From a virus (lineage: Duplodnaviria > Caudoviricetes), in IMG/VR virus record IMGVR_UViG_3300030372_003104, positions 1-63,359 of that record: a stretch of DNA of 63,359 bases; one strand, written 5' to 3'. How positions within the stretch are numbered: the first letter of the stretch is position 1; the number at the start of each line of letters is the position of its first letter. Shown one piece after another: positions 19,336 to 63,359 of this stretch. A program made the position numbers and the translations under genes. The notes under the pieces were generated by a model that saw only the letters and a program-made list of their open reading frames with translations, did no database searches and was not told where the DNA came from.

Positions 19336-20454
19336 ATGAAGTTCAGTTCGTTACCACAATATGAGTTAGGAGAAAGGTACTCGAAAGACCGTACCTCTTC
19401 TAAATATAAGAGAGCTGCTAGAAGACTTAGAAAAAAAGGATATAAGTCTGAGGCAGGTAGGATGGCTTTGCAAGCAGAGCTAGAGCGTATGAACGAACCT
19501 ACGATTATGCGCCCAGAGCATAGAGAGCTTGAGGCTAAACAACAGGAGAGGTTAGTCCAGTCTAGAGTACCTCAAACACCTACAAGTACATCTGCTATAG
19601 ATCCATCACAAGGTATGGCAGATTTAAGAGGTAACTTCTTTGGAGATATAGCAGCTTCTAATTTACCTGTATCGGAGCAAGCAATGTTTGCTAAACGCTT
19701 TGACTCTCAGGTTTCTGACATGGCTAAACAACAGAAAGCATATGTTGATTTACAAAATGCTCAGAGGAAAAACAGAGAAGACCAAAGGGTAGCACAGCTA
19801 ACACCTCAAGTTGCTACAAGAGTTAGAGAAATCATGGAGTCAAAAGGTACTGACTCTCAGAAACAAAAAGCTCTGACTAAAACAATGTTATCTCCACAGG
19901 TATCAACAGCTCTATCTAGTACATCAGTCAGTTCTATATTCACTTCAGCAGCCGATCAGCTAAAGATTAACAAAGCAGATAGAAGTAAAATAGATGCTCT
20001 CGTTAAAGAAAGAGTTGGTAAAGGTGATCTCTCTTTGATTGATCAAGCATCACCTGAAATGTCAGACATGTATAGAGCTATAGGAATAAGAGAAAGCTCT
20101 AAAGAAACTAGAACTGAGCAGCTTAAAGAACTAGAAGATATCGAGGGCATGTTAAGTAGTTTACGTCGTGGGAATATTGAAGACAGTGCTCTCCAAGCAT
20201 TGATACAAGCACAAGGCATACCCGAAACTGCAGACAATAAACAAATACTCGTCGAGTTAATTCTTTTATTAACATATAACCAAGACTCAGAAGAAGAGAG
20301 AAACAGGTTATCTGAGATGAGTGAAGCAGATTTATATATTGAGGCGTACAAAGATTTATTCTCCCAAAAAGGTGCTCTCTCCATGAGAGGTCAACAGCAA
20401 CAAGCTGCGGTTAACCCTGCTGCTAGTGCTGCTGCATCTAATTGGAGTACTTAA
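19336..20454 (+). CDS. Putative internal virion/ejection protein
   Basis: Helical Q/A/S-rich protein. Function inferred from position. Confidence 0.5.
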   Translation: MKFSSLPQYELGERYSKDRTSSKYKRAARRLRKKGYKSEAGRMALQAELERMNEPTIMRPEHRELEAKQQERLVQSRVPQTPTSTSAIDPSQGMADLRGNFFGDIAASNLPVSEQAMFAKRFDSQVSDMAKQQKAYVDLQNAQRKNREDQRVAQLTPQVATRVREIMESKGTDSQKQKALTKTMLSPQVSTALSSTSVSSIFTSAADQLKINKADRSKIDALVKERVGKGDLSLIDQASPEMSDMYRAIGIRESSKETRTEQLKELEDIEGMLSSLRRGNIEDSALQALIQAQGIPETADNKQILVELILLLTYNQDSEEERNRLSEMSEADLYIEAYKDLFSQKGALSMRGQQQQAAVNPAASAAASNWST

Positions 20455-23400
20455 CTATAACATATACAACCCAAATTCTGCTGTGTCAGACCTATATCCA
20501 ACCCTATCGTTGGGGGAACAAACCCCTGTGCCTAATGACCTTGATCAAAATATCATCGTCCCTCCTTTAAAATCATTTAGCCAATGGTCGGCTAGTTCAG
20601 GATCAGAGATCAATGATCCATTGCTCGGTGCTCAAGGTTATGCCGACTATCAACGTGGGCATTTCTTCCGTACTGGAGAATTAAATGATGAAGTAGAAGG
20701 CTCAATAACACAAGGCTTGGTAGGCAGTTTACTTAACAATGGATTAGTGACTGAAGAAGACGTACAGGCAGAAGGTTTTCTATCTACACTTAAACCCGAA
20801 AGCGATGTGCAGACAAAGACTAACCTTATCCGTATGGCTTATGGTGAGGAGGCAGGTTCTATCTATAACAATAATATACAAAGTGATTCTGCTAATACAG
20901 AAGAATTAGATAAGCAACTTAACAGAGCTAAGACATTACTTGTTGAATCAGGTAACCTACCTTTTGCCAGAATAACAGACGAGAAAGGTATAGATAGAAT
21001 TGTAGGAGGAGTAGGTATTGAAAACAGGGGGGAGTCTTTAGATACTGCCGTTCGTTTAGGTGGGCTAGATTATTCAGATGCTTATCGTGTTATGTCAGGT
21101 CTTGAAAAAAGATCTGGTGATACATCAACTGCCTTCGAAAACATAAGGCAAGCAACTCTGCTTCGTGAACTAAATGATATTCTTGGGTCAGAAGATCCTT
21201 CTGATGATGTAACTCAGAACGCATTAGATGCTATGCGTGAGCTTGTAAAACAAAAGGATATAAAGCCTGATCAAGACCAGTCATCAGCTATGAGTGCTGT
21301 GATAAGAGACTTCCGTAAAGGATTGTCATGGAACTACAGCCGTAAGAATGGGTTTGGGGAAAGAGCAGCCCTTAATAGATTTAGTGATAAAGAGATTAAA
21401 GATACCGTTGAATTACTCGCAGCCAATGAGGTCAATGAGAAAGGTGAGTTTAAATTATACGATGAGGATGCTAAGAACATCCGCATATTAGGGAGCGGTC
21501 ACGTACTTGCACACCCTGCATTGATGCAGCAGAAAGAGAGGTTTGAGAGAGCTATAAAGTCAGATAAAAGATTATCCCCTGCTCAAGCTACGTCGCTCAG
21601 AAATCAGCGTAAGTTGTACAGAGAGTTAACGTATGAACAGTACGATAAGTTCCTGTCTGAAACTGCAGCTACTAGTGATGACTGGATGGCAGCGAAACAA
21701 GCAGGTAGAGTTAAAGGATTAAAAGATACTGATGTCTTAGATAGTTTTGTAGCTGATAACCGTAATTACAGTTCTATAAAAAATAGATTAGGAGATATAG
21801 CAGCCACTATCCCTGATGCGGTGATAGGGATGTTTGCTTCATTAGGGGCTATCGTATTCAAAAGCGAAAGAGCTACGAATTACTTAGTTGAAAACCAAAT
21901 GGACAGGCAACGTCGTAGAGAAGTGGCCGCTATCTTCGGGGATGACTTTGGTTGGGGTATGGATCTATCCAATGTGGTAGCTCCTATGATTGTTGATGTG
22001 TCTGCGACAGCTTTCTTATCTGCAACAACTTTAGGTGCAGGTGGTGTAGCCTATGCTGCTACGAAAACAACTGCAACATCGGCAGCTAAACTAGCTATTA
22101 AAAAACTTACTTCGTCTTTTGTAAGGAAGCAGTTTGGTGATGCTGCTAGAACATCCGTTAAAGCTACAGCTTTAAGAAGAAGCCTTAACGAGTCAGGAGA
22201 TCTCGCATCTAAAAATGGTGTTCAAGCTGCTCTTAAAGAATATAACAAAGCGGTCGCTAACAGAATGTTTCGGAAGTCTGTAGCGTACCCTTCAATGTTT
22301 TTACCTGCAGCTAACAGGAGTGCGGGTAGTACATATGCTACTGTATATGCTGCACAGCCTGACAACATGACTCACGAAGAGAAGCACGACGCAGCTTTAG
22401 GGTACGCTATGATGGCGGGTACTGTGACAGGTCTAATAACAACTGCTTTCATGGGTTTGGGCAGAGGCGGTTTTGAGAAAGAGTTCCTTAATGGTTTATC
22501 AAGTAAAGGACTTAATGCGGGTCTACAAAAACTTACTAACTTAAACATCGTTGGTAGAGGAGCGGCCGAAATAAAGAAAGAGATTGCTGATGTAGTAAGT
22601 AAGAAGTTATCAACTTCTTTGAAAGATCGTATAGGATCAAACTTAAAAGCATTTGGAATACCTGCAAGAGACGAAGCTTTAGAGGAAGGTCTTGATGAGT
22701 TTGTACAGACATTCATTATGGACGCTGCTCTTAATGAAGATACTCCTATGGTGGAGAGAATGATGATAGGACTACATGCCGCATCTTTAGGAGGAGCAAT
22801 GGGAGCAGGTGTTGTTGGTGTTCGTCGGATGATTGATAGAGGTAGAGGATCTCAGTATGAGCAGTTCCAAGAACAGAATATTAATAATTTAATTAACGAA
22901 CTTGAAGCTACAGGATCTCCACTAACAAAACAGTTTATCGAAAGTAATAAACCTGACATACTAAGACAACTAAGAACTGCTTCAAGATCTAGAGAAGATT
23001 TAAATGTTTCATTCGACCCACAACAAGAACTAAATTTTGACGAAGGAGTTACAACAGCTCCCGAAAGGGATGAAGTATCTGTAGGAGAGGCTAGAAGAAG
23101 TGCGTCTTCTGCAGGAGTAGCTTCTCAACAATTAGATTTGTTTGACCAACCCGCTCAAGAAGGTCAGATGGATTTCATAGAAGATTTATTAGGAAACAAA
23201 GTAAGTAAGGAAAACGCAAGGCAGCAGATAGAAGATGCGTTGGCAAGTATAAACACAGACTTCGTAAGATCTGCTAGTGAGGAATTAGAATTCAGAGAAT
23301 CTCAAGCGGGTGGGATCGAAGGGTTAGAAAAAGAAAGACTAGATAAAGTTAGGCAGCAAAAGTTTGAGGATAGTTTTGGCAATCTTTGGATAGACAAAGA

Positions 23401-26400
23401 AGAATCAGAAGTCTTAGGACAAGGACTGTCTGCAAAAGAACATTACCAAAGGTTTGAGAAAGCTCGGATAGAAGCTGTTAAAGTAGCTGAGTTCTGGGGC
23501 ATGGAAACACGTATAGATTATAACGAGAACAATAAAGCTAGAGGAGCATTCAGAGCAGAGAGACTACAAGACGGAACTGGAATGCGTTTGGTTATGAATC
23601 CTTGGGGTATGTCACGCCTGACAATGGGGCTTAATGAAGGAAACGCACAGCACGTTAGCCGCTTTGAAGCTGCTCACGAAGTTATACACCATGCTGCTTG
23701 GAGAAGTCTAAGTAAAGCTGAGTTGGATGAAATATTTTCTGTGTTAACTCCAACACAAGTGAATGAAATAATAGACACATACTACGACAATGAAGAGAAG
23801 CGTGTTAATGCACGTAACTTACTAACTCCTGATGCAAGCCCATCAAGAAGGCGTAACATGCAACACATTATAGTCGATGAGTTTCTTCGTATGAAAGCAC
23901 AGAAGCTAACGAAAGGGTATACGTCTGAAGAAGAAATTGAATTCTATAAGAGTAACCCAAACTTTGTCCGTGTTTTCTTACGTTACTTAGGTTCTTACTT
24001 AAATAGATTCAAGGCTATAAGAGAAAGAGACGGAGAAAACCCTGTTGTTGCTGCAGCTACAAATAGATTGACTGGAGAAATGGCAGCTCTCAGAGGAGGT
24101 TACGCCATAACATCTACTGTTAAGTTTGATGTTAATGATCCAGAAGGTACGATAAGAATCCTTGCACAATATTTAGATGATAGACCATTCACTAATGACC
24201 CAAACGAAAGACTTAACTTTGGAGATCGTGAAACACAGGCGGGGGCAGTAAACAATAAAGGTGGACAAAGAGGAGGTCTTGAAAGCGGGGAGTTGGATAC
24301 TGAACTAGGGGGTATTGAATACGGTAGTTACGCCCCACTGTTTCAGATAGCTATGTACGAAGAAGGCCCATACAGAAAGAAGATGGATGGTATGTGGTCT
24401 TGGCTGAATGCTTTCAGAGGTGATGTAGACCCACGAGTTAAGAGAGTGCTACAACAAAGACAGCAGATAAGAGAAGCTGTTGCTAATGATGTGGAAAAGT
24501 TTTCTATTAATCTTAAAAAGATTGTTGAAGAAGACTTTAAAGGCAACCCTCCAGCGGAACTAATCAGAACAATTATTGGAGACAGGAATAATATTTCTCC
24601 TGAGACAGACAATGCTTTTATGAAGTCTATAGAGGGCAACACTCCCGCTCAAATAAAAGCTAAGAGAGAGGCTTATGTTGCAGACAAACAAAAAGAATTC
24701 AATGATAGAAAAGCTGCTGCTGTAAAAGAACTAGCTAAACTACAAAACGTAGACCCTAATCAGGGGAATGATACGAGACTAATGAAACACCTTAATTCTC
24801 TACGAGGATTAACAACGCAGTTATCAAAAGAGATAAGAAGGATTGTAAAAGAAGATAGTGAGATGGGGATAGCTATTGGGGACAACCTTGAAATTTATAT
24901 ACATAGAAAATACAGACTGTTTTCTGAAAAAGAATACAGAGATAATATAAGAAATCACCCTGACTACGAGTCAGTAAGGAATGATGCAGGTGATTATCTG
25001 TTTAAGGAATATGTAAGATTACATAAAGACTGGCAGAACAATGATCGAAATATCTCAGACAAGACGGAGTTTAAAAAACAACTAGTTAATGATTACCTCG
25101 ATGTATTTATTAAAGGGGAAAATAACACTAGTAAAAACAACCTGATTAATAATCTTAAAGGACATAGGAAAAGTATAATTACTTTAGATATAGGAGCTTT
25201 AAAGACGAGGAAGAATCCTCCTCAAGAATTAAGAGAACTATTAGGGGAAATAACTGATAGTGAAAAAGGTTACGGTGATCTTGTAAGAACATTCCAACAC
25301 CTTGGTTTAATCGCTTCACAACTAAACTTTATAAATAATCTAAAAGAGCTTGGTCTTAATAATGGCTTTATTAAAAGTGCGGGTAAGAAAATAGATACGA
25401 CTGCTGAAGGTAAAGATATATACGAGCGTGATGCAGAGTTCGAAGGATCAAAAGAATTTGAAGAACTTGTCATACAAAAAGGGGAAGACATTAACTTAAT
25501 TAACGCTGCTCCTTTTGCCGATGGTAAAAAGTATTACGTCTTGAAGGAGATGCAGTCTGCTTTGAGTGCTATGCTCAACCCACAGACACAGGTAGATCCT
25601 ACCGAAGCACAAAAAGCAAATGAGTTTTTGATTAAGATAGGAGCTAAGTTAACTGGTCTATCTTTAGGAGCGAAGACTCTAGGCTCTATTGGATTCTATG
25701 TGCGTAACGTGTTTTCTAATATGTTATTTTTCGGCCCCGCTCAAGGGTTCTGGAAATTAGGTATGATGTCTAAGTCTTTACAGCAAGAGTTCATACGAAA
25801 GAAATATTTATCTATGTCACCAGAAGAAGTGAGTGCTTTCCACAGGACTGTAGGAGGTATGCTTGGGTTCGGTCAAGATATCAACGCCAGACTCATACAA
25901 GATTTATTAGAGAATCCTCCAAGCGAAGCTCAACTACAGCAAGAACTATTAAATGTTGTAAACGAAATAGAAGAAGCCACTGGTGAAAAGCCTTCTCTTG
26001 ATATCGACGTGCTCTCTAAGAAAGTAGGAGACTCAAGGTTAGGTAAGCTGTATGCAAGACTACGTGATCTATCACAAACAGTTGATACTTTCTTTAGGAT
26101 ATCAGCTTTTATGTTTGAACTTGATTACCTACAGAAAGCTAGAAAGTACGATCAAGATAATCCACCAAGTAAAGACGTTAAATCTAGGAGCTATGCGAAC
26201 TACAGTGATTCGCAACTCATGCAAGAGGCAGCAGATGTAATCAAAAAGACACAACAAAATTATAGTGAAGCACCTCCCTTCGTACAAAAAATGCAAGGCA
26301 ACTGGTTCGGTGTAATGTTCGCCCCATTCATCCGATTCAAAGTAGAAGTCCCAAGGATTATGTTGAATACAATTCCTCAAATCAAAAAGGAAATGCAACA

Positions 26401-27433
26401 CCATAATCCAGTTATTAAAAAAAGAGGTAAGGAAAGACTCATAGGTATGACTACTGTTATTACGGCTTTCTCAGCAGGTATTGGAGGAATCTTAAATGCT
26501 ATAGCAGGTATTGGAGAAGAGGAAGATGAAGCTATTAGGGACTCAATGCCTGAGTACTTGAGGACACACTCGTTTATTTATTTTGGTAAGGGAGACAAAT
26601 TAAAATCAGTAGACCTTACTTATGTTAATCCTTTTGCAATGGTAGTTGACCCTTTCTTACGAGCATTTGAAAAGATATGGAGAGGGTCACCCGCAGAGGG
26701 TGGTGCTGCATTCTTCAAAACATTAGTAGCTGACCAGTACTTAGATCAACAGATCCTCGCAGGTGCAGTGACTAGTGCTCTTAATAACAGAGATCCAGAG
26801 ACAGGCAGACCAATAACCGAAGCTAATGATACAGCATGGGAAGCGTTTACTAAAAAGTTTCAATTCATGTTTAGTGAAGCGTACATGCCACGAACACCTG
26901 ATAACCTAATCGAGAATGGTATAAAGAAACTTAGCGAAGGCGATCCAGATGCTATTGATTTTGTGCTTACCCCTGCGGGGGCTTTAGCAATGGAGTTCCT
27001 TCCATTCAAATCACATGATGTGTCACTTGAAAAACAATTCGATAGGTTCTTATCTGAACGATCAGGAGAATATCGTCGGGCTGTCGCAACCAAGAACACA
27101 ATGTACACCGATAGAAATCTCCCAGAAGGTACAGTTAGAAAGTTAGCCGATAGTGAGATCGAAAGACGTAGAAGAATTAACGCACACTTACTCCGTACAA
27201 TGAGAGGGTTTGAAAGTTTAGGTCTGACTAAAGAACAGATATACTCACAAGCTACCGAACGTGGTTATGGTAAGCGGAGGATGGCACTTCTTCTGAATGG
27301 ATTAATGGAACGTCCTGCATTGCAAACACCTTTCATTAGGAACATGGCAGTGAAAGGTGATTTACATATAGAAAGATTAAGGACATTCCAGAATCAACTT
27401 GAGAACTACGATCGCTACATCCCTGTAGAATAA
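20426..27433 (+). CDS. Large polyvalent internal virion/ejection protein with a zincin-like HEXXH domain (likely start GTG 20483)
   Basis: Gly/Ala-rich hydrophobic helices, E..EE..Q motif, AAHEVIHHA, and C-terminal KT..S....RN..SN and PF..F..E..R patterns typical of podophage ejection proteins. Confidence 0.7.
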   Translation: MLLHLIGVLNYNIYNPNSAVSDLYPTLSLGEQTPVPNDLDQNIIVPPLKSFSQWSASSGSEINDPLLGAQGYADYQRGHFFRTGELNDEVEGSITQGLVGSLLNNGLVTEEDVQAEGFLSTLKPESDVQTKTNLIRMAYGEEAGSIYNNNIQSDSANTEELDKQLNRAKTLLVESGNLPFARITDEKGIDRIVGGVGIENRGESLDTAVRLGGLDYSDAYRVMSGLEKRSGDTSTAFENIRQATLLRELNDILGSEDPSDDVTQNALDAMRELVKQKDIKPDQDQSSAMSAVIRDFRKGLSWNYSRKNGFGERAALNRFSDKEIKDTVELLAANEVNEKGEFKLYDEDAKNIRILGSGHVLAHPALMQQKERFERAIKSDKRLSPAQATSLRNQRKLYRELTYEQYDKFLSETAATSDDWMAAKQAGRVKGLKDTDVLDSFVADNRNYSSIKNRLGDIAATIPDAVIGMFASLGAIVFKSERATNYLVENQMDRQRRREVAAIFGDDFGWGMDLSNVVAPMIVDVSATAFLSATTLGAGGVAYAATKTTATSAAKLAIKKLTSSFVRKQFGDAARTSVKATALRRSLNESGDLASKNGVQAALKEYNKAVANRMFRKSVAYPSMFLPAANRSAGSTYATVYAAQPDNMTHEEKHDAALGYAMMAGTVTGLITTAFMGLGRGGFEKEFLNGLSSKGLNAGLQKLTNLNIVGRGAAEIKKEIADVVSKKLSTSLKDRIGSNLKAFGIPARDEALEEGLDEFVQTFIMDAALNEDTPMVERMMIGLHAASLGGAMGAGVVGVRRMIDRGRGSQYEQFQEQNINNLINELEATGSPLTKQFIESNKPDILRQLRTASRSREDLNVSFDPQQELNFDEGVTTAPERDEVSVGEARRSASSAGVASQQLDLFDQPAQEGQMDFIEDLLGNKVSKENARQQIEDALASINTDFVRSASEELEFRESQAGGIEGLEKERLDKVRQQKFEDSFGNLWIDKEESEVLGQGLSAKEHYQRFEKARIEAVKVAEFWGMETRIDYNENNKARGAFRAERLQDGTGMRLVMNPWGMSRLTMGLNEGNAQHVSRFEAAHEVIHHAAWRSLSKAELDEIFSVLTPTQVNEIIDTYYDNEEKRVNARNLLTPDASPSRRRNMQHIIVDEFLRMKAQKLTKGYTSEEEIEFYKSNPNFVRVFLRYLGSYLNRFKAIRERDGENPVVAAATNRLTGEMAALRGGYAITSTVKFDVNDPEGTIRILAQYLDDRPFTNDPNERLNFGDRETQAGAVNNKGGQRGGLESGELDTELGGIEYGSYAPLFQIAMYEEGPYRKKMDGMWSWLNAFRGDVDPRVKRVLQQRQQIREAVANDVEKFSINLKKIVEEDFKGNPPAELIRTIIGDRNNISPETDNAFMKSIEGNTPAQIKAKREAYVADKQKEFNDRKAAAVKELAKLQNVDPNQGNDTRLMKHLNSLRGLTTQLSKEIRRIVKEDSEMGIAIGDNLEIYIHRKYRLFSEKEYRDNIRNHPDYESVRNDAGDYLFKEYVRLHKDWQNNDRNISDKTEFKKQLVNDYLDVFIKGENNTSKNNLINNLKGHRKSIITLDIGALKTRKNPPQELRELLGEITDSEKGYGDLVRTFQHLGLIASQLNFINNLKELGLNNGFIKSAGKKIDTTAEGKDIYERDAEFEGSKEFEELVIQKGEDINLINAAPFADGKKYYVLKEMQSALSAMLNPQTQVDPTEAQKANEFLIKIGAKLTGLSLGAKTLGSIGFYVRNVFSNMLFFGPAQGFWKLGMMSKSLQQEFIRKKYLSMSPEEVSAFHRTVGGMLGFGQDINARLIQDLLENPPSEAQLQQELLNVVNEIEEATGEKPSLDIDVLSKKVGDSRLGKLYARLRDLSQTVDTFFRISAFMFELDYLQKARKYDQDNPPSKDVKSRSYANYSDSQLMQEAADVIKKTQQNYSEAPPFVQKMQGNWFGVMFAPFIRFKVEVPRIMLNTIPQIKKEMQHHNPVIKKRGKERLIGMTTVITAFSAGIGGILNAIAGIGEEEDEAIRDSMPEYLRTHSFIYFGKGDKLKSVDLTYVNPFAMVVDPFLRAFEKIWRGSPAEGGAAFFKTLVADQYLDQQILAGAVTSALNNRDPETGRPITEANDTAWEAFTKKFQFMFSEAYMPRTPDNLIENGIKKLSEGDPDAIDFVLTPAGALAMEFLPFKSHDVSLEKQFDRFLSERSGEYRRAVATKNTMYTDRNLPEGTVRKLADSEIERRRRINAHLLRTMRGFESLGLTKEQIYSQATERGYGKRRMALLLNGLMERPALQTPFIRNMAVKGDLHIERLRTFQNQLENYDRYIPVE

Positions 27434-52242: not shown

Positions 52243-53210
52243 TGGCAAATGACACAGCTACTGTTACACAGACAGTTAATTCAGTCACTGTCGATCCACC
52301 ATCCCAAAGTTCTTTAACAGTAACATCAACTTCGGGAGGTGCTTTAACACTTTCTGAGAGTACAGCTAGTTTAACGGCTGTTACTGTATCTCCTTTATCA
52401 GCGAGCCTAACGATTGAAAGTAATTTCGCTCCTAAAGAGAGTCCTAATTTTACAGGGATACCGACAGCACCAACAGCTTCTGCGGGAACTAATACAACTC
52501 AGATAGCGACTACTGCGTTTGTTAATAGTGCAATTACGCTAGAGAATACTCTAGCTGAGATGGATGATGCTAACTTCACGTCTCTGGGTAATAATGAGAT
52601 TTTACAATATGATACCTCTTCCTCTAAATGGTTAAACCAAACATTGTCTGAAGCAGGTATTGCTTCAACATCATCTTTATCTGCACACACCAGTGCAACG
52701 AATAATCCTCATAGTGTTACGGCTACTCAAGTCAATTTAGGGAATGTTACTAATGAGTCTAAGGGTACGATGTTTACTACCCCCACCTTTACTGGTCAAA
52801 TTACACATTCAGGAGTTATACTCACAGCAGGAACAAGCATAGACCAAGTTAAAACTTCTGTAGTTTCTATGACGGTTACTCCAACTTTTCAAGACACTAA
52901 CATAACTCAATCAGGAGCTATGCCTACTGGAACTTATGTTATGTTATTACATGTAAATGATGCAGCAGGGGGAGGTTCAGCAGAAGCTTACTACTCAGCT
53001 ATTATAAATATTTATGGTGGTACGACTAGTGCGGATGATTTTTCTAGTGAGGTAGACTTACATAGATCTGGAGGATCTGATAATGGTAAAATGATTTTTA
53101 TAAGAACTCGTTCTGAAGCTGATACAAACAATGTGCGTATTGAGATGGCAGCTAATTTTACGGCTTCAAATACAAGTAATTATACATTTAAATTTAGAAG
53201 ACTTATTTAA
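52242..53210 (+). CDS. Short tail fibre protein
   Basis: APK.SP.FTG.PTAPTA..GTNTTQIATTAFV and NNPH.VT..QV.LGNV.N fibre repeats. Confidence 0.75.
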   Translation: MANDTATVTQTVNSVTVDPPSQSSLTVTSTSGGALTLSESTASLTAVTVSPLSASLTIESNFAPKESPNFTGIPTAPTASAGTNTTQIATTAFVNSAITLENTLAEMDDANFTSLGNNEILQYDTSSSKWLNQTLSEAGIASTSSLSAHTSATNNPHSVTATQVNLGNVTNESKGTMFTTPTFTGQITHSGVILTAGTSIDQVKTSVVSMTVTPTFQDTNITQSGAMPTGTYVMLLHVNDAAGGGSAEAYYSAIINIYGGTTSADDFSSEVDLHRSGGSDNGKMIFIRTRSEADTNNVRIEMAANFTASNTSNYTFKFRRLI

Positions 53211-56200
53211 TGGCTTCAGAAGGAAAATATTTTAAAGGAGATATCCACACATTAGGGAATGTAGGTATTGGTAATTTATCTGCTTCATATAAACTTGATG
53301 TTACTGGAGCGGCCAACATTTCAGGTAATTTAAGTGTTGGGGGTATTCCCACTGCCCCGACAGCTTCCGCTGGAACTGACACGACTCAGTTAGCAACCAC
53401 TGCGTTTGTAAGAACTGAGGTAGCTAATCTGGTGGATTCCAGCCCCGACACGCTCAACACACTCAATGAGCTTGCGGCTGCATTGAATGACGATGCGAAC
53501 TTCGCTGGAACTATAACCACATCGATAGCGACCAAGCTTCCTTTGGCTGGTGGAACCTTAACTGGAGTTTTAACCATACCTGATGGCAGTGCTAGCGCAC
53601 CGAGTCTTAGGTTTGCATCACATAACACAGGTTTATTCGCAACTTCTGGAACAATACAGTTCTCTGTTGATGGGGCGCAAAAGGCTTATATAAGCACAGC
53701 AGGAGTATTATCTTCGGCAAATCTTTATACTTCAAATACAGGTGAGTTCCGAAACTATGGTGGAACATGGAAAGCCACAACTGGATTAACAGGTAATGGT
53801 TTCCAGTTCATCAACTCAGTAGATGGCACAGCAATGACGTTATCGTCTGCTGGAGTTTTAAATGTAACTGGTAACATTACATTAGGAGGAACCGTAGATG
53901 GAAGGGACGTAGCTGCTGATGGATCAAAGCTAGATGGTATTGATGCTGGAGCTAAAGACGATCAAACAGCAGCGGAGATTCTTGGACTTCTTACATCTGT
54001 TGATGGAGCTGGTTCTGGTTTAGATGCTGACACACTCGATGGGATAAATGGTGCAAGTTTCCTTCGCTCAGATACTAACGATGATTTCTCAGGCACATTA
54101 AATTACACCCCTGACACTGGGACTATTCTTTCTGTCGATGGTCAAGCTATCCTTCAGAGGATGACCGCCAATGGTGCTATCACGATTGGTCACGATGATG
54201 CCGTTATCATTGCTGCTGGCGAGACATCAGGAGTTCTGAACTCCAACATCGCTAATAATGTAGAGCGTGTTATTGTGGGAGCAGAAGGAGGTTTTTATGC
54301 TTACGCCTTCCCTAGTAATGATACATCTTGGAGTAATAGAAAAACATTAAAATGGGATGGAACTGATCTTTCTGTTTTAGGTTATAATGTTTGGCATGAG
54401 AATAATGATGGATCTGGTTCTGGGCTAGATGCAGATACCTTAGATGGTAGTCATGCTTCAACATTTGCTGCTGCTTCTGATTTAAGTACGCACGTTGCTG
54501 CTACTAACCCACATAATATTACAGCGAGTACAGTAAGTTTAGGGAACGTAACGAACGAGTCCAAAGCGACTATGTTCACAAGTGCAGCTCTTACTGGCAC
54601 ACCAACTGCGCCTACAGCTAGTGCAGGTACTAATACCACTCAGATAGCAACGACAGCTTTTGTAAATGCTGCGGTAGCGTTAGAGAACACTTTAGCTGAG
54701 ATGGATGACGTTGTTATTTCATCTTTAGCTAATGGGGAATTACTTCAATATAATAGTGGATTAGCTAGGTGGATTAACGCAACTCCAACCGAAGCAGGAA
54801 TCCTTCCCCTCGCAGGTGGGACGATGACTGGTAACATCGTATTATTAGACGGAACAGTAAGTAGCCCTTCGTTGACTTTCACTAGTGGAACTAATACAGG
54901 AATTTATTGGAGTAATTATACAACTTCTCCACAAAAGGATCAGTTAAACTTTGCTGTAGATGGTGCGACAAAAGGATGGGTTAACGAAGCAGGTGTATTT
55001 AGTAACGCTAATGTCTATGTTGCTAACGGACATTCAGTCAGAACTTTCCAAGAGTGGCAAGCCACAACAGGTGGGTCAGGGTATGGGTTTAAGTTTAGGA
55101 ATACAGCGGATGCTATTGATAGCATGACTATAAGTTATGCAGGAAATGCGGTGACTAATGGTTCTATTACAAGTACAGAAGGATATTTTAATAGTAGTAC
55201 TTTAAGCTTGCACGGCACAAGTTCTGTAAATTACCTATCATCTCAGTCTGCTTCTAGAGATCTTCAAATAAGAAATACGGGAGCTAATAAGGACATTGTA
55301 TTTAAAACTAAAGATTCATCAGGAGAGAATGAAACTCTTAGATTTAGAGGATCAGTAAATCATATAGTCGCAAGTGGTGACATAGAGGCAAGATTTGGCA
55401 CAAACTCTAGAACTTTTAATCTGTATGAAACCTATACTGACTCCTCTAATTATGAGAGATCTTTCTTCAAGCATGCTTCTAGCTTCTTAGAGATAGGAAC
55501 TGAGGCGTTAGGCACAGGCACAGCGAGTGGATTAAAACTCAAGACAGGAGGGAATGCTGCTATAACAATAGGGACTGATCAAAAAGTAAAAGTTGGGGGT
55601 GGAACAAATACTCCATCTTTGGGAGGAGGAACAGTCTTTAGAGTGGACATGACTCAAGGTGCTGGCAACTATGCGAGCATCGCTATCTTGGGAGGCAACA
55701 CAGGAAGATCTAGTTTGTTCTTTGGCGATCTTCACGCAGAGCAAAGAGGTGCTTTGGATTACAGGCATGGGGATGACTCTCTGTCTATAAGCACAGCAGC
55801 AGGAGAAAGAATGCGTATTCTTTCTGATGGTAAGGTAGGGATAGGTACAACATCTCCTAACTACTTACTCGATGTCGAAGGGTCGGGAGCAAATATGCGT
55901 GTACGTAATACGGCAACCGATGCTGTTACGCAAATTGTGATGAGGTCAGGAGGATCATCAGGGGAGAATCAAATTATATTTGGCGATGATGATGATGATA
56001 ATAGGGGAATGATTCGGTACAGACACAATGGCGATAGTCTAGCCTTTGATGTAGCTGATGCAGAGAGGATGCGTATTCTTTCTACTGGTAACGTAGGTAT
56101 TGGCACGACTACGGCTCCTCATTTGCTTTCAGTAAAAGGAACAATTTCAAGACTCAATAGTTCTGGAATACAGGTTATAAACCTTGGAACAACAAGTGAT

Positions 56201-59200
56201 CATGGTCAGTTGCTACTTAATCAGTCAGGAGGTGTAACCAGAATTGCCCTCAACACTGGTGGAGCAGACAGTTATATCAATGCAGGTAAATTTGGTATAG
56301 GAACCACAACACCTGATGTATTACTCACTGTAAAGGCTAATAACACAACAGGCCCGACAATAGGTTTACATAATTCCGAATACCAAGCGTGGATAAATTC
56401 TTGGGGTTCTACAGCATCATCAGGACGGCAATCACGGTTTGAAATCAATGCTAGTAATACAGACTTTGCTGTTGCTGGAAATACCATAAGATTCCAAATA
56501 GCAACTGTAGGAGATGCTTATGAGAAGATGCGGATACACTCTGATGGCAAAGTAGGTATTGGGACTGGTAGCCCTGCAAGAAAACTTTCAGTCAATTCAG
56601 GTGAGATAATTACTGCAATGTTTGAAAGTACCTCAAATCAATCGAGAGTATCTTTCAACGACTCTGGCACTTCGGGTAATAATTATGTAGGTGCTGGTTC
56701 TTCTGGTGATAACTTAACATTGTTTGCAGGGGCAGCAGAAAAGGCAAGGCTAACCTCTGGAGGTAAATTAGGAATAGGTACTACTAACCCTGCTGAATTA
56801 CTCCATGTGGAGGGTAGCAATGCAACTATTAATGTTCGAGAAAGCGGTGCTGCTACGGTTAAAATGCGAGCAGGATCTGTTGGTAGAATAGGAACATATT
56901 CAGATAATGATTTCTCTATTGTTAGCAATAGCACGGATCAAGTTCGTATTAAAAGTGACGGCAAGGTTGGTATAGGGTATACAACCCCTGCCCAAAAGCT
57001 GCATGTTGCTGGAACTATAAGAACACACACTAATGCTACTACAAAATACATAGATTTATTTGGAGGTAACTCTGGAAATTTTATAGATACTTATGGGAAC
57101 AGTTTATTCATAAGGTATGGGGGAGACACTAGTAAAAGTATTGTTCTAAATGGCTCTGGTAACGTAGGTATTGGTGCAACGCCACAATCAAAATTTCATG
57201 TTACTGGTGGAGATATTAGAATAGATAACAACCAACAGTATTTGGCAGAGACTGCTGGTGGTGGGGTGATAGGTGTTGCTAAGATGGATGGTTCAGACAA
57301 CCTCTTGATTGGTGATGGTAACCTGAAGATTGATGTAACTGGCACTACGGCAAGATTGATCATTGATTCTAGTGGAAACACAACTCTAGCAGGTGACCTC
57401 ACAGTACAGGGAGACATCTCTACTACAGGATCATTTACAATTGTAGACACTGATGTAAGTACAACAGAACAACTTTCAATTACTAATAACGGAACTGGCC
57501 CTGCACTGATTGTAAATCAGACTGGAGTGCAGCCAATAGTAGACTTTAAGGATGACGGCACATCTGTATTCTACATAAAGGACGGGGGTAATGTAGGTAT
57601 AGGAGTTACAAATCCAATATCCACACTCCATTTAGAAGGGCATGGAAGTACAGGGGGTTTACGTATTGATAACGGAAGTGGTGGTAGTGATAGTGTTAAT
57701 TTTTACCACGTTGATGGTGGTAATGATTCTGATTTTTTTATTACATATTCAGGTACTGGAGGAGCTGAGATTACTCTAAAGGCTGATGGTGATACTATTC
57801 TTAATGGCTCTAATGGAGATAATGTAGGTATAGGTGAATCTAGCCCTGACGAAAAATTAGAAGTTGCAGGAAATATTTTAGCAAAAGATTCTGGAGTTCT
57901 AGCTGGAGTAAATGGTGCAAAAGATGGGTTTATATTCCATGATCTTTACACAAGTGGAGGCAATTATTATGGCTATAAAGGATTCACTAGCCCAGCAAGA
58001 CTTTCAACAGTAACAGATGGAGTAGAAAGATTAACTGTTGATGCTAATGGCAAGGTAGGTATAGCAACGACCTCTCCTGCTACGAAATTACAAATTGATG
58101 AGTACACAGTAGGGTCTAATGGAAGTCAGTCTGTAACTGGCACTGCGTCTATATTTACGAATAGCGGTAGTGATGGTTTATATCTAGGTGTTAAGAATGC
58201 CAGTTACCCAAATAGGGGTTATGCCTTCAAAGTCACTAGCAACGGTGTTAACTCTGACTTTACGATTAAAGAGCATGGTTTATCTGGTGATAGGTTTAAG
58301 ATTTTTACAGGGGGTAAGATTGAGCAGAACTATATAAGCTATACAGATTCATCAAACTATGAAGCTTTGCAGATAAGTGGTGAGTCTGATCATATTAGGT
58401 TTACTACTAAGTCCATTGGTTCTTTTGTGAGTAATAATAGAAACTTTAAGTTTTATGTAGGTTCAAATCTAAGAGCTGAAATTAGTCCGAACGGAATATT
58501 TGCATATAGTAATTTTTACACTTCAAGTGGTGGAGCATTTAGGGCGCATGGACACGATAGTATTATTTCAACAGGTGGGGGCGATTATGACATAAAATTT
58601 AATCTTAATGATCAAGAGAAGGTTAGATTCAAAGCTAATGGCAACGTAGGCATAGGGAACACCGACCCAACACAGGCAAAACTTCAAGTAAGTGGAGGCT
58701 CTGTTTTAATTGATGCTTACAATGCAACTGGCACTCATGGCTTATTCTTTAGATCTGGGTTCGTAACTTCAAATCAATACAATTTATCAATCACTTGTCA
58801 TAATGATGGTGATGGAAGTCCAGATGCTCTAGATATAAATGCTTATGATGGCATCTATTTCAATACAGGGGCTAACACTCGTGACACTCAAGCTTCAATA
58901 AATTCAGCAGGTAAGTTCTGCATTAACCAAGGGGATACTAGTTCTGACTTTTTACAAGTAACAGGAGCAAATGGTCTTTACGCAGCTAGATTTAATGGTT
59001 CTGCTACAGGTGGTAATAGTTATGGATTAAGGGTCAGGGCAGGAACAAATGAGAATGATATAAGTTTCCTAGCTGAAAACACTTCTGGAGTTGATTTATT
59101 TAGGGTAAGTGGAAATGGAAATGTCGCTATTGGAAACGTAACTCCAACAAGTAAGCTTTATGTTCATTCAGGTGCTTTCTCTAGTGGAGAGGGCGAAATT

Positions 59201-60085
59201 AGAAATGATGCTAGAGTTAACAGGAATTACAAGTTAGCACTAGGTACAACGACCAAGTACATTGGTACAGTCCAAATGAATGGCAATGGTGACTCTTCAG
59301 GTTTCCATGTGCGGATATATGATGGGCATAGTAAAGTTTGGAGAGAGGTAAATGTAGTTGTACAAAATTCAGGTGGTACAAATAATACCAAGGTAATTGT
59401 CGAGGGAGGTGGAGATGATGTAAACATTAACGTAGAGTTTGCCTATGTAAATAGATCAGGGGCAGCTCAAAAGACTGACTTCTATTTAGTCCCAACATCA
59501 AACAAAGCTTATACACAATTAATTTTTGTTGATGGATTTATTGAAAGAGACACAGGTCATAGTAGTACAAGCTCGACTAATATAAATTTAGATACTGCGG
59601 TTGGGATATATAAAGCAGCTACGGACGATTCAAGCAGAATTGGAATTGGAACTAATAATCCTTCCGAAAAGTTACACGTTCTTGGAAATGCAAGGATAGG
59701 TAACAATACAACTAATGGACATCTAATAGGCAGAAAAGATTATTCATTAGATCACAATTTCTCTACAGGGTTAACAGTCGAATTAGGTAACCACAAAGCT
59801 TGTCATGTAAAAGTATTCATATCAGGTGATTGGAGCAACCATAGTTCGATTGCTTATGTTGGTGAGTTTTTTATACAGAACACTGGCGATATAGGATCGT
59901 ACAATGAACCAGGAATTATCCTAACAGAACACGATAATTTACCAAGTGATCAAATAGAATCTAAAATTGTAGATGGAACTTCAGACTCATTTGAGATTCA
60001 ATTTAAAACTTCAACACAAGTAAGTAGCACAATAGGAGCAAGACTTTGTTACCACGTAATGGGAGACGCAACATCAGTATCATAA
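53210..60085 (+). CDS. Giant tail fibre/adhesin (2291 aa) with 14 GIGT-type repeats
   Basis: PTAPTA..TTQ.ATTAFV, SP.TLNTL.ELAAAL.DD.NFA, GSGLDAD.LDG and xVGIGxxxP repeats. Confidence 0.85.
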   Translation: MASEGKYFKGDIHTLGNVGIGNLSASYKLDVTGAANISGNLSVGGIPTAPTASAGTDTTQLATTAFVRTEVANLVDSSPDTLNTLNELAAALNDDANFAGTITTSIATKLPLAGGTLTGVLTIPDGSASAPSLRFASHNTGLFATSGTIQFSVDGAQKAYISTAGVLSSANLYTSNTGEFRNYGGTWKATTGLTGNGFQFINSVDGTAMTLSSAGVLNVTGNITLGGTVDGRDVAADGSKLDGIDAGAKDDQTAAEILGLLTSVDGAGSGLDADTLDGINGASFLRSDTNDDFSGTLNYTPDTGTILSVDGQAILQRMTANGAITIGHDDAVIIAAGETSGVLNSNIANNVERVIVGAEGGFYAYAFPSNDTSWSNRKTLKWDGTDLSVLGYNVWHENNDGSGSGLDADTLDGSHASTFAAASDLSTHVAATNPHNITASTVSLGNVTNESKATMFTSAALTGTPTAPTASAGTNTTQIATTAFVNAAVALENTLAEMDDVVISSLANGELLQYNSGLARWINATPTEAGILPLAGGTMTGNIVLLDGTVSSPSLTFTSGTNTGIYWSNYTTSPQKDQLNFAVDGATKGWVNEAGVFSNANVYVANGHSVRTFQEWQATTGGSGYGFKFRNTADAIDSMTISYAGNAVTNGSITSTEGYFNSSTLSLHGTSSVNYLSSQSASRDLQIRNTGANKDIVFKTKDSSGENETLRFRGSVNHIVASGDIEARFGTNSRTFNLYETYTDSSNYERSFFKHASSFLEIGTEALGTGTASGLKLKTGGNAAITIGTDQKVKVGGGTNTPSLGGGTVFRVDMTQGAGNYASIAILGGNTGRSSLFFGDLHAEQRGALDYRHGDDSLSISTAAGERMRILSDGKVGIGTTSPNYLLDVEGSGANMRVRNTATDAVTQIVMRSGGSSGENQIIFGDDDDDNRGMIRYRHNGDSLAFDVADAERMRILSTGNVGIGTTTAPHLLSVKGTISRLNSSGIQVINLGTTSDHGQLLLNQSGGVTRIALNTGGADSYINAGKFGIGTTTPDVLLTVKANNTTGPTIGLHNSEYQAWINSWGSTASSGRQSRFEINASNTDFAVAGNTIRFQIATVGDAYEKMRIHSDGKVGIGTGSPARKLSVNSGEIITAMFESTSNQSRVSFNDSGTSGNNYVGAGSSGDNLTLFAGAAEKARLTSGGKLGIGTTNPAELLHVEGSNATINVRESGAATVKMRAGSVGRIGTYSDNDFSIVSNSTDQVRIKSDGKVGIGYTTPAQKLHVAGTIRTHTNATTKYIDLFGGNSGNFIDTYGNSLFIRYGGDTSKSIVLNGSGNVGIGATPQSKFHVTGGDIRIDNNQQYLAETAGGGVIGVAKMDGSDNLLIGDGNLKIDVTGTTARLIIDSSGNTTLAGDLTVQGDISTTGSFTIVDTDVSTTEQLSITNNGTGPALIVNQTGVQPIVDFKDDGTSVFYIKDGGNVGIGVTNPISTLHLEGHGSTGGLRIDNGSGGSDSVNFYHVDGGNDSDFFITYSGTGGAEITLKADGDTILNGSNGDNVGIGESSPDEKLEVAGNILAKDSGVLAGVNGAKDGFIFHDLYTSGGNYYGYKGFTSPARLSTVTDGVERLTVDANGKVGIATTSPATKLQIDEYTVGSNGSQSVTGTASIFTNSGSDGLYLGVKNASYPNRGYAFKVTSNGVNSDFTIKEHGLSGDRFKIFTGGKIEQNYISYTDSSNYEALQISGESDHIRFTTKSIGSFVSNNRNFKFYVGSNLRAEISPNGIFAYSNFYTSSGGAFRAHGHDSIISTGGGDYDIKFNLNDQEKVRFKANGNVGIGNTDPTQAKLQVSGGSVLIDAYNATGTHGLFFRSGFVTSNQYNLSITCHNDGDGSPDALDINAYDGIYFNTGANTRDTQASINSAGKFCINQGDTSSDFLQVTGANGLYAARFNGSATGGNSYGLRVRAGTNENDISFLAENTSGVDLFRVSGNGNVAIGNVTPTSKLYVHSGAFSSGEGEIRNDARVNRNYKLALGTTTKYIGTVQMNGNGDSSGFHVRIYDGHSKVWREVNVVVQNSGGTNNTKVIVEGGGDDVNINVEFAYVNRSGAAQKTDFYLVPTSNKAYTQLIFVDGFIERDTGHSSTSSTNINLDTAVGIYKAATDDSSRIGIGTNNPSEKLHVLGNARIGNNTTNGHLIGRKDYSLDHNFSTGLTVELGNHKACHVKVFISGDWSNHSSIAYVGEFFIQNTGDIGSYNEPGIILTEHDNLPSDQIESKIVDGTSDSFEIQFKTSTQVSSTIGARLCYHVMGDATSVS

Positions 60086-60086
60086 A

Positions 60087-63000
60087 ATGGCAGACCAAAC
60101 TATACCATCAATAAAGAATTTAAGAGGCAATATCGGAATCGGGATTGCGATCCCTACGAAAAAGCTAGAAGTAAGTAGTAGTGGAGCAGATGTTACTACA
60201 ATTAAAGCATCATACAATTCTACAAATTATTTAGAGTTAGCACATAATAGAATAAATGCAGTTTCTTCTGGTGGAAACGATTCTATTCTTTTGCAAACGG
60301 CAGGTACGACTCGTGCCACAATCAACCAAGTTGGAAACGTAGGTATAGGAACTACAAGCCCCGTATCTAAATTAACAGTTGAAAGCAGTGCTAACGCATT
60401 AGCTGATGTCGATGAGCCAGAAAACCATCACTTGCTTTTAAGAAATCCTGCAAACGATACCACTGAAGGTGTTGGTATGGGCTTTTTAGTTTCTGAACTT
60501 ACTAATGATGTTGGTGCTTCTATAGTATGTAAAAGAGTTGGTAATAATGCACAAAGTGAACTTCAATTTTGGAATAAACAAAACACAACTAGTGATGGAG
60601 TTATAACTCAATCAATGACTATTGCTGAGGATGGTAATGTAGGTATAGGCGAATCAAACCCTGAACAAAAGCTTCACATTAAAGGGGATCGGTTAAGGAT
60701 AGAGGAAAGCGTAAACGCTAGACATTTAGATATCATACCTGCCGTTAGTGGGCAGCCCCATAAGTTTACAAGCACAACTACTGGTTCTGGATATCAGTTT
60801 GAAAATAGTTCTGGCACTATCGCAATACTAGACGCAAATGGTTCAGCTTTTTATCAAGACCTAACAATATCCGCATCAAATTTAAAACTTAGCTCTGCCC
60901 ATTATGTGCAGTTTGGTAGTGCTAATGCTAGAATCCAAGGAAGTAATGGTTCTAACTATTTAAAGTTTTATACGGGTGGTACAGAAAGATTAGCTATAAC
61001 TAATACAGAAGCTACTTTCAGTGGTGACCTTGTAGTTACAGGCGGTCTAACCATCAATGGCACGACCACAACGCTGAACAGCACGACTCTTCAGGTTGAT
61101 GACAAGAACATTGAGCTAGGAACTGTAGCTACTCCATCTGACACAACTGCTGATGGGGGTGGTATTACTCTCAAAGGTGCTAGTGATTATACAATCAACT
61201 GGACTAATTCAACTAACTCATGGCACTTTAACCAAGGGATTACAGTTGGGGAGAATGGAACAGGACATGATGTGGTTTTCTATGGCGATACCTCAGATCG
61301 TTATATGACATGGGATCAGTCTGCTGATAAGTTGCACCTTAGAGATAGTGTTCAGTTGACTCTTGGAACGCACAATGATTTACAACTGTCCCATGATGGA
61401 GTTCATGGGCATGTCTTATATGGAGGCCCGAATAATTTTCAAATTTCAGGAAATTCTGTCATTTTAATAGGGTATAATGATGGCAGTACTTATGGTGAAA
61501 CTGCGATGACCATGACAAAAAATGGAGCGGTATCAATTAGGCACGATAATTCGCAGAAATTCACTACAGATGCAGGTGGCATCACTGTCACTGGAAAGAT
61601 GACCTCTGACTCAATTACCACAGCGTTAAGCTTGGAGATGTTTGCATCTAGTGGGCATAATTACATCTCCTCACAATCTTCAGGTAGTAATTTATACATA
61701 AGAAACACAGGAGGAGGTCAGATTCTTATAAGACCTAAAACGGGCGAAGACGGGATAAAACTCATACCTGATGGAGCAGTAGAGTTATACCACGATAATG
61801 CTCTCAAACTAACCACTACAGCAGGGGGAGCTGATATAGCGGGTACATTCGGTACAGGTCATATAAATTTAGATGGCGAGCTAAACTTCACAACGAATGG
61901 TAGCAAGTACATAGATGTTAACACTCTAGCTAACAGCAACACCTTTAATATTAGACACCACAACCCAAGTGGAAATTTATATGAAATGGCTTTCCAGTCA
62001 GCAGCTAATGGAGCCACAACTCTCTATTATGATGGAGCAGTTAAATTCGCCACCACGACTGATGGAATCCAGTTACATGGGAATGGTTACTTGGATATGC
62101 CTGACAATGGGCGTATTCGGATGGGGACTAGCCAAGATTTTGCAATCTACCATAATTCATCTGATAATAAGTCAGTCATAGAGGAGATAGGTTCTGGTAA
62201 TTTATCCATAAGAGGAACTAACATTGAGTTGAACAATGCTGCTAATAATAAAACTTATTTATTAGCTACTGATGGAGGTTCAGTACAGCTCAGGCATAAT
62301 GATTCCACTAAGCTAGAGACTACCTCAACAGGTGTCGCTGTAACAGGTAACTTATCTGCTTCAAGCTTAACAGTAGATGGCAGCCCACAAGCAGGAGAGG
62401 TAAGATTTAGTGCTACTGGAATAAACAACTCTACATATACAACGCTTTGTACTGTAGTTGGAAACAACCTTGCATCGATCATTGATATGACGATCACGGG
62501 AACTAGTAATAATGTTGTTCTAAACTCTTCTTTTGAAATACTAGTAAACCATTCTCAAGACATCCATGTTAAATCTGTAAGTGGTGACTATAAAGAAGTC
62601 ACACTTAGGATAACCAGTGACAATAATGAAGATTTTTCTATTGAGGCTAAACACAATGGTAGTACGACTACAACGATAGAAGTTTGTATTTTCCCACGAG
62701 CAGGTGAAACGATTACACCTACATCCACAGATCCTAATTACACAGGTACTGAATATGTACACACAGCTACTGAAGGTTTTAGATTTGGCGGAACTGATGG
62801 AACTACTGAGTCTTCTAACTTGATAGTTGACGGTAAAATTGGTATAGGTACTACGAGTCCAGCAGAAAAGCTCCATGTGGAGGAAGGTTATATACTTGCT
62901 GATGGAGCGTCTACAAGTCACGGATTTGAATTAAGAAGAGATTCTTCTGACACTTTCCAAATAAGACATTTAGGCGGTAATTTTACTATAAATAACCTTA

Positions 63001-63359
63001 CAGATAACCGTAAAGATTTATCCATTGATGGTGATGGTAAAGTTGGTATAGGAACTTCAACCCCATCATCGTTATTAAATTTAAGTGATGCCTCAAACAA
63101 CCTTTCTCATCAGATAGGATTCTCCTATGTAAGCGGAGGAACTGAGACAGATGCTTTTACTATTGGTAGAAATAATTCTACAGGAAATCTAGAGTTTCAT
63201 TCTGATATAAACAATCATGGTTTCGAGTTCAAGCACAACGCTGCTGGTACTCAAGAGTTCAACATTCTAAACATGAATGTTGGTATAGGAACCACAACCC
63301 CAAGTAGCACATTACATGTTTATGATTCAGCAGGGCCGACTATAAAGTTTGAAAGAAGC
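60087..63359 (+). CDS. N-terminal half of the second giant tail fibre (runs off the window end and joins 1..3470)
   Basis: ATG 1 bp after the previous stop (MADQTIPSIKNLRGNIGIGIAIP...). Contains GIGT repeats and is in frame with the start-of-window ORF. Frame spot-checked at both ends rather than codon by codon. Confidence 0.85.
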   Translation, partial: MADQTIPSIKNLRGNIGIGIAIPTKKLEVSSSGADVTTIKASYNSTNYLELAHNRINAVSSGGNDSILLQTAGTTRATINQVGNVGIGTTSPVSKLTVESSANALADVDEPENHHLLLRNPANDTTEGVGMGFLVSELTNDVGASIVCKRVGNNAQSELQFWNKQNTTSDGVITQSMTIAEDGNVGIGESNPEQKLHIKGDRLRIEESVNARHLDIIPAVSGQPHKFTSTTTGSGYQFENSSGTIAILDANGSAFYQDLTISASNLKLSSAHYVQFGSANARIQGSNGSNYLKFYTGGTERLAITNTEATFSGDLVVTGGLTINGTTTTLNSTTLQVDDKNIELGTVATPSDTTADGGGITLKGASDYTINWTNSTNSWHFNQGITVGENGTGHDVVFYGDTSDRYMTWDQSADKLHLRDSVQLTLGTHNDLQLSHDGVHGHVLYGGPNNFQISGNSVILIGYNDGSTYGETAMTMTKNGAVSIRHDNSQKFTTDAGGITVTGKMTSDSITTALSLEMFASSGHNYISSQSSGSNLYIRNTGGGQILIRPKTGEDGIKLIPDGAVELYHDNALKLTTTAGGADIAGTFGTGHINLDGELNFTTNGSKYIDVNTLANSNTFNIRHHNPSGNLYEMAFQSAANGATTLYYDGAVKFATTTDGIQLHGNGYLDMPDNGRIRMGTSQDFAIYHNSSDNKSVIEEIGSGNLSIRGTNIELNNAANNKTYLLATDGGSVQLRHNDSTKLETTSTGVAVTGNLSASSLTVDGSPQAGEVRFSATGINNSTYTTLCTVVGNNLASIIDMTITGTSNNVVLNSSFEILVNHSQDIHVKSVSGDYKEVTLRITSDNNEDFSIEAKHNGSTTTTIEVCIFPRAGETITPTSTDPNYTGTEYVHTATEGFRFGGTDGTTESSNLIVDGKIGIGTTSPAEKLHVEEGYILADGASTSHGFELRRDSSDTFQIRHLGGNFTINNLTDNRKDLSIDGDGKVGIGTSTPSSLLNLSDASNNLSHQIGFSYVSGGTETDAFTIGRNNSTGNLEFHSDINNHGFEFKHNAAGTQEFNILNMNVGIGTTTPSSTLHVYDSAGPTIKFERS

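Follow-up and report, generated by a model that had tools for sequence, protein, structure and literature searches.

The 63,359-nucleotide (nt) stretch analysed here, hereafter the window, is the complete IMG/VR virus record IMGVR_UViG_3300030372_003104, originates from marine metagenomes, and both starts and ends inside the same giant tail-fibre gene, gene B. We judge it likely, at a probability of about 0.8, that the window is an assembly of a circular marine phage of about 63 kb from a population with two versions of gene B, which differ by one module, B05, through an insertion or deletion (indel) bounded by a recurrent motif encoding GIGT. The two versions would differ by a single motif-to-motif module of 79 amino acids (aa), and the imperfect agreement of the contig ends would reflect an assembler that took one arm of the resulting bubble at the contig start and the other arm at its end. 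All features of the window described below lie on the plus strand.

The contig ends record both versions. Bases 1-77 are identical to 62989-63065, after which agreement ceases, and extension backwards from the contig end finds bases 70-134 identical over 65 nt to 63295-63359. Identities of this length (77 and 65 nt) do not arise by chance in 63 kb. Within the terminal overlap, the start copy (1-134) is therefore the short allele without the 79-aa module, and the end copy (62989-63359) is the long allele that includes it. Absent from the start copy are 237 nt, or 79 codons (63066-63302), and the placement of this gap may shift by up to 8 nt inside the common sequence CAACCCCA. A preliminary description of the sequence had set out the same overlap geometry, which proved exact on recheck. 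The first 40 and last 40 bases of the window occur twice each within it, the junction string at 60-90 occurs once, and 31-mers starting at 48-69 are found in the short allele only. Because of the 237-nt indel the ends, which overlap by 134 nt versus 371 nt, do not form an exact direct terminal repeat, and this inexact repeat would explain why the record is classed as 'linear' in IMG/VR; its CheckV completeness is 100%. Joined through the imperfect overlap, the ends would give a circle of 63,225 nt with the long allele or 62,988 nt with the short allele.

Gene B reads through this closure in either form. The open reading frame (ORF) from 60087 exits the 3' end of the contig, resumes at base 3 and reaches its stop codon at 3470, such that the 5' part of the gene occupies 60087-63359 and the 3' part 135-3470. 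Closed on the end copy, gene B spans 6609 nt (2202 aa), and closed on the start copy 6372 nt (2123 aa), each with a single terminal stop, in keeping with the prior claim that both alleles are in frame. Flanking the module are two 24-nt repeats, the left at 63042-63065 encoding VGIGTSTP at the start of module B05 and the right at 63279-63302 encoding VGIGTTTP at the start of module B06. They are alike at 22 of 24 positions, with a longest run of 14 identical bases, which makes them the most alike of the 26 adjacent motif pairs (the runner-up scores 19) and ties them for best among all 351 pairs. The short allele carries at 54-77 a hybrid repeat, again encoding VGIGTSTP, in which the TT of the left repeat is followed by the downstream flank of the right, and the 237 nt confined to the long allele comprise the B05 module body and the right motif repeat. 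Since the TT of the left repeat is retained in the short allele, the crossover falls inside the 8-nt common CAACCCCA. Its placement within an imperfect 24-bp repeat encoding VGIGT[S/T]TP, as first proposed from the sequence, is thereby confirmed.

Both alleles are present in contigs from a second assembler. Logan contigs, built with k=31, from four runs were aligned to 53210-63359. At this k, two alleles predict a short unitig of 52 nt (start coordinates 48-99), a long unitig of 289 nt (63036-63324) and common sequence that stops at 63065 and resumes at 63295. In run X2 a 982-nt contig (record 13, depth 11.4) ends at 63065 and a 4277-nt contig (record 16, depth 10.8) starts at 63295; between them stand a 289-nt contig spanning 63036-63324 as the long path (record 14, depth 9.5) and a 52-nt contig for the short junction (record 15, depth 7.2), which as predicted places 46 letters on 63279-63324 and has 2 other letters. 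The summed X2 depth at 63319 is 27.5, that is 9.5, 7.2 and 10.8 together. With both predicted paths present in X2, the short junction is not an assembler chimera. The preliminary description had made its proposal depend on sequence spanning the junction at 60-90 and on the existence of more than one allele, and the X2 contigs supply both. Flank depth in X2 is close to the genome-wide depth of 11.2 (record 9, 14,310 nt), which makes each flank a single-copy sequence and each junction an alternative to the other. Run X1, with a genome-wide depth of 12-15, agrees in two pieces: record 7 (depth 15.1) breaks off at 63065, and record 8 (depth 10.1) is the 289-nt unitig at 63036-63324. Its summed depth at 63319 is 31.2, of which 21.1 stems from contigs outside those listed, a remainder that would fit a short-path contig of depth about 6 on top of the main contig. 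An exact scan of viral contigs for either junction, excluding the window's own record, returned no stretch, and a scan of metagenome contigs returned five loci, none of them near-identical, with no independent contig across the junction.

The boundaries of the missing piece can be placed in a structural context. Gene B and its upstream neighbour gene A (53210-60085), a second giant fibre gene of 2291 aa with 12 GIGT motifs, both match several PHROG families of the generic 'tail fiber protein' type, including phrog_18345 and phrog_9942 for the 3' part of gene B, and a Pfam search of both fibre proteins matched no family. Distant relatives in cultured phages, at 23-33% identity, are Synechococcus phage tail fibres and Pelagibacter phage hypothetical proteins. 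Among structures in the PDB, the central part of gene B matches the cyanophage P-SCSP1u fibre gp28 (8I4M, E 2e-17), and in the GIGT-rich parts of the gene a phmmer search with 220 aa around the indel finds the Bdellovibrio proteins Bd2133 (8OND, E 4e-7) and Bd3182 (8OJN, E 0.015); 8OND is matched by other fibre queries at E 2.2e-9 and 3.3e-7. The motif has the form G-x-V-G-I-G-T-x-x-P-x-x-K/L-L and recurs at 27 GIGT-type sites in genes A and B together, with a spacing of mostly 66-100 aa. Window motifs KIGIGTTSPAEKLHV and KVGIGTSTPSSLLNL align on Bdellovibrio stretches such as RVGVGTTAPTSALH, and window stretches KVGIGTSTPSSLL and KIGIGTTSPAEKL align to stretches of Bd3182 and Bd2133.

In the sections of Caulton et al. 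2024 (PMC10769870) that bear on fold, MAT/S74-type fibres are described as intertwined trimeric beta-helices or prisms, a consensus is given for their capping loops, of which R656-H669 and F752-H765 are named, and the loops are reported to bound a surface cleft resembling the ligand-binding clefts of phage T5 and K1F fibres. The aligned stretches agree with these two named loops in length and end residues, given an inferred numbering offset. The GIGT motif thus appears to match the capping loop of trimeric beta-helix fibres, and the missing piece would then be a single segment of the fibre shaft, running from loop to loop. Homology likewise suggests a trimeric intertwined beta-helix fold for gene A and gene B products. 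Exactly one such segment, B05 (aa 986-1064 in the 2202-aa form), is taken out by the indel, and a hybrid loop remains; the segment lies mid-protein and mid-shaft, not at the distal tip. No Pfam match to a C-terminal S74 chaperone/protease domain was found in the 3' part of gene B, which would place it in the non-S74 type.

Modules of gene B recur as discrete cassettes in related phages. Scans of IMG/VR and metagenomes gave 15 related loci, from which L018, a duplicate of L008, was removed. Comparison by blastn of the circularised fibre region with these loci yielded 44 high-scoring segment pairs (HSPs) at E<=1e-10; removal of the L018 rows and of HSPs shorter than 100 nt left 40 HSPs with 79 untruncated ends. 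These ends gather at the motifs, with 38 of 79 lying within 30 nt of one on either side (12% expected; reached in 2 of 5000 shifted-site null sets) and 25 of 79 within 15 nt (6% expected; 4 of 5000). B05 forms an isolated island of homology (63024/63032 to 63292) at 86-92% nucleotide identity in L006, L007, L016, L017 and L019, and occurs in 7 of the 14 loci overall when L014, where it is cut by the contig end, and L008, at 74% identity, are included. Its neighbour B04 (62838-63041, 68 aa) forms a similar island (62841/62864 to 63055) at 90-92% identity in L009, L010, L015 and L020. In the alignments homology stops inside the motifs; part of the left motif, its 3' half (TCAACCCCA then TCATCG), goes along with module B05 in L007 and L016.

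At the protein level B05 is present at 97.4% identity and exactly 79 aa from motif to motif in two of seven loci examined (L006 and L007), where its neighbours are unrelated and its place along the gene is different. B04 is present at 88-91% identity and exactly 68 aa in three of the seven (L009, L010 and L015). By comparison, the family-A DNA polymerase is 59-66% identical to that of the window in four of five related records, namely those with a match, and the two phages that bear the 97%-identical B05 have polymerases only 59-62% identical. Near-identical modules set against polymerases of about 60% identity argue that modules have been moved horizontally between distant phages. Two observations on these relatives concern their assembly. 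The related 53.8-kb viral contig that holds L014 ends within its own copy of the B05 cassette (4001-4197), and the same modules seem to be where assemblies from this phage group break off. The 72.7-kb record that contains L006 has two DNA-polymerase matches near its two ends (1050-2843 and 66886-68700, 62% and 60% identical to the polymerase of the window) and may be an over-extended or two-strain assembly.

Further rearrangements are seen in X7, a run of another study that holds a relative diverged by a few per cent. In its contig 27 (341 nt), position 56966 of gene A is followed by position 62839 of gene B at an in-frame, motif-to-motif joint with well-matched sides of 148 and 193 letters, which places B04 directly after A06. 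This joint suggests that modules also move between the two fibre genes. Contig 29 of the same run passes from 62862 to 63276, again motif to motif (side of 81 letters), and skips 62863-63275; other letters may lie in between. Other candidate joints at motif sites with a short side of 21-27 letters, for example 55852 to 62838, 56790 to 60332, 60358 to 63035 and 63055 to 63276, were rejected as motif-only matches from other organisms. Elsewhere in gene B of X7, 312 nt of the motif-free central region (62027-62340) are swapped for 1119 other letters, an exchange that is not at a GIGT motif. Also in gene B, a 34-nt X2 contig at 61216-61249 has a depth of 98.8 and contigs of X2 and X3 break at 61220-61249; this short stretch appears common to far more abundant sequences.

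The short allele would most likely derive from the long by one recombination or replication-slippage event between the flanking 24-nt repeats, with the crossover placed in the 8 nt common to both. Loss of one loop-to-loop unit in this way would leave a hybrid loop and an unbroken frame. Deletion between short direct repeats is well known in phages, and the simplest account would be a single such deletion via recombination, annealing or slippage, because the junction is an exact hybrid and the pair are the most alike adjacent motifs. The same motif-bounded cassettes pass among distant phages and between genes A and B. A dedicated enzyme need not take part. Searches of the entire record for RVT_1 (PF00078), Resolvase (PF00239) and Phage_integrase (PF00589) gave no matches, with controls positive in 3, 12 and 14 of 14 genomes respectively, which agrees with the initial suggestion that this variation requires neither an invertase nor a reverse transcriptase. 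No Erf/RecT/Rad52-type recombinase was found among 20 non-fibre ORFs scanned together with a calreticulin-like ORF; the genome encodes a DUF2800/PD-(D/E)XK nuclease, a helicase and a family-A polymerase. Regarding the idea that fibre variants are made by recombination between GIGT repeats, both alleles exist and GIGT-bounded modules are units of exchange, whereas recombination between the repeats as the origin of the two alleles is what we infer.

The codons of the motif are more uniform than those of the gene as a whole. Across the 27 motif sites (53210-63359 and 135-3470) valine is GTA at 15 of 21, isoleucine ATA at 17 of 25 and threonine ACT at 13 of 18, giving a summed homozygosity of 2.69 versus 1.99 gene-wide, a value reached in none of 5000 resamplings. 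Such uniformity may stem from common descent, from gene conversion or from selection for likeness at the DNA level, the last of which we do not claim. This uniformity, the polymorphism at the most alike adjacent pair and the placing of B04 after A06 in X7 are nevertheless hints of a 'linker code', in which capping-loop codons would be kept alike in DNA so that cassettes are frequently lost, gained and moved without an enzyme. We consider this an unlikely extension of the data, and are equally hesitant about its scope, which would run from variation within one population, through exchange between two fibre genes, to traffic across marine phages with core genes about 60% identical. If true, fibre surface and length would be varied in combinatorial fashion without any enzyme.

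Several points weigh against a two-version population generated by motif-bounded loss. The Logan evidence consists of contigs and not of counted raw reads, so allele frequencies are rough, and the contig may itself have been assembled from X1 or X2, which means that these runs test the assembler and are not an independent sample. The 52-nt contig is not among the matches listed for X1, and X3 has no contigs over 62300-63359 among its matches listed. Allele depths in X2 add up to 16.7 (9.5 and 7.2), above the flank depth of about 11, an excess that can be noise over just 22 k-mers or be due to 31-mers common to other phages. In the comparison with relatives the loci were chosen with query 62700-63359 and are biased to that region, and HSP ends are not independent, L016 repeating the coordinates of L007 and L020 those of L015. 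The 413 nt skipped in contig 29 of X7 are not a multiple of three, and this joint may be a replacement instead of a deletion. Finally, the direction of change, loss or gain, and its mechanism are not observable from sequence.

This last point bears on the possibility that the short allele is ancestral and that B05 was inserted by a double crossover at capping-loop motifs with a co-infecting phage carrying it. B05 does exist as a precise 79-aa cassette, 97% identical in protein and 90-92% in nucleotides, in phages with polymerases about 60% identical, the 3' half of the left motif accompanies it in L007 and L016, and the comparative data indicate that such motif exchanges occur. Gain is somewhat unlikely, in that it requires two crossovers and a donor, of which no identical example was found (the best at 92% nucleotide identity), and the two repeats of the long allele itself combine exactly into the short junction. 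An exact hybrid of the most alike adjacent repeats is what a single intramolecular deletion predicts. It is quite unlikely that the two versions belong to distinct co-occurring strains or species with a common fibre part and are not variants within one population. Metagenomes do mix strains, relatives with other module arrangements occur in X3 and X7, and Logan pops bubbles caused by single-nucleotide polymorphisms, so that identical k=31 flanks are no proof of clonality and this, too, counts against a single population. In X2, however, both paths have their flanks in common over 982 nt on the upstream side and 4277 nt on the downstream side, without another letter against the window and at single-copy depth.

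That only the long allele is natural, the short junction being a library or assembly chimera at the 24-nt repeat, is highly improbable. A commonly used assembler k is 77, and the start copy runs for exactly 77 nt to the branch, the length expected from a de Bruijn graph with K=77, and repeats invite template switching. K=77 nonetheless fits the 5' end only, since it predicts a 3' end at 63371 and the contig ends at 63359; the 14 or fewer identical bases in a row are too short to collapse a graph at k=31 or k=77, and the second assembler yields the junction at a depth of 7.2 beside 9.5, far over chimera rates. Just as improbable is that both junctions lie on one molecule, within a larger duplication, and that the contig is not a closed circle. 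The repetitive nature of fibre genes and the linear class in IMG/VR would be compatible with this, but a duplication would double the depth of the flanks, which stand at 11.4 and 10.8 versus 11.2 genome-wide in X2 and at 15.1 versus 12-15 in X1, and the CheckV completeness of 100% is also at odds with it.

The case resembles several known systems. For T-even phages, the passages of Trojet et al. 2011 (PMC3157838) concerned with fibres cite motif-mediated recombination in gp37/gp38 (Tetart et al. 1996, 1998) and report that duplication of a small fibre domain can alter or expand host range. As in T-even fibres and adhesins, where according to the same passages short conserved motifs part variable segments and no dedicated enzyme is involved, 27 GIGT motifs here separate segments and the homology of relatives breaks at the motifs. 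The motif and the fold, a beta-helix capping loop, are different, however, and no Pfam match links these genes to T4 fibre families. Modules here are 66-100 aa long in two proteins of about 2,200 aa from an uncultured marine phage, and the variation is a standing presence/absence polymorphism in a metagenome, whereas T-even variation is known from crosses. The present case thus appears to work like the T-even process and not to be homologous to it.

Closer in sequence are the Bdellovibrio MAT fibres (8OND and 8OJN, E 4e-7 and 0.015). Capping loops in Bd3182 are about 96 aa apart, compared with 66-100 aa here, and PMC10769870 characterises the MAT family as a mosaic in which C-termini have been exchanged. 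That exchange is described there for tip domains, whereas here internal loop-to-loop cassettes are involved. MAT fibres also come from a predatory bacterium and not a phage, and an S74 chaperone domain was not found in gene B. Programmed fibre variation is otherwise known from diversity-generating retroelements, as for BPP-1 Mtd, and from invertase switches such as Mu Gin and P1 Cin. The outcome is alike, in that more than one version of the fibre coexists in the phage population, but no reverse transcriptase or serine/tyrosine recombinase was found in this genome, and the change is a module indel instead of targeted mutagenesis or inversion. A long-read study of marine viral populations (PMC12379486) reports, in its accessible portions, structural variants concentrated in tail fibres; unlike the present case, those portions give no motif-level mechanism or module anatomy. 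A literature search by motif letters yielded unrelated papers, with microcin J25 and flagellin among the subjects of those listed, and found no paper that treats these motif strings as fibre recombination sites, though one may exist elsewhere.

Two further genes of the window may be recorded. A 203-aa ORF just 3' of gene B (3719-4330) matches Pfam Calreticulin (PF00262, E 2.9e-11) over aa 68-136, a match that is unusual for a phage, and its product may be a lectin-like or fibre-assembly protein. At 20426-27433 lies a 2335-aa ORF with no Pfam match, the third giant gene in this 63-kb genome.

That fibre genes recombine at conserved motifs has been known for decades, and to specialists the case will be confirming, not surprising. 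What is new is a motif-to-cassette rule for giant marine fibres, together with a standing polymorphism of one module caught in a contig's own ends. As a practical warning, a complete circular viral contig can receive a 'linear' label when a polymorphism of this kind lies at its ends. The motif rule for cutting fibres into modules is of use in annotation, in the engineering of fibres of laboratory phages and in reading the 'hypervariable regions' of fibres in viromes. It also ties a motif of solved Bdellovibrio and phage beta-helix fibres to cassette boundaries in the giant fibres of marine phages. In the published description of related fibres (PMC10769870), the cleft between capping loops is likened to ligand-binding clefts, for which reason gain or loss of B05 could create or abolish a lateral binding site, or could simply alter fibre length. 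In either case, the window is a clear-cut case from nature: one phage population, two in-frame versions of a fibre, and a difference between them of exactly one structural module.

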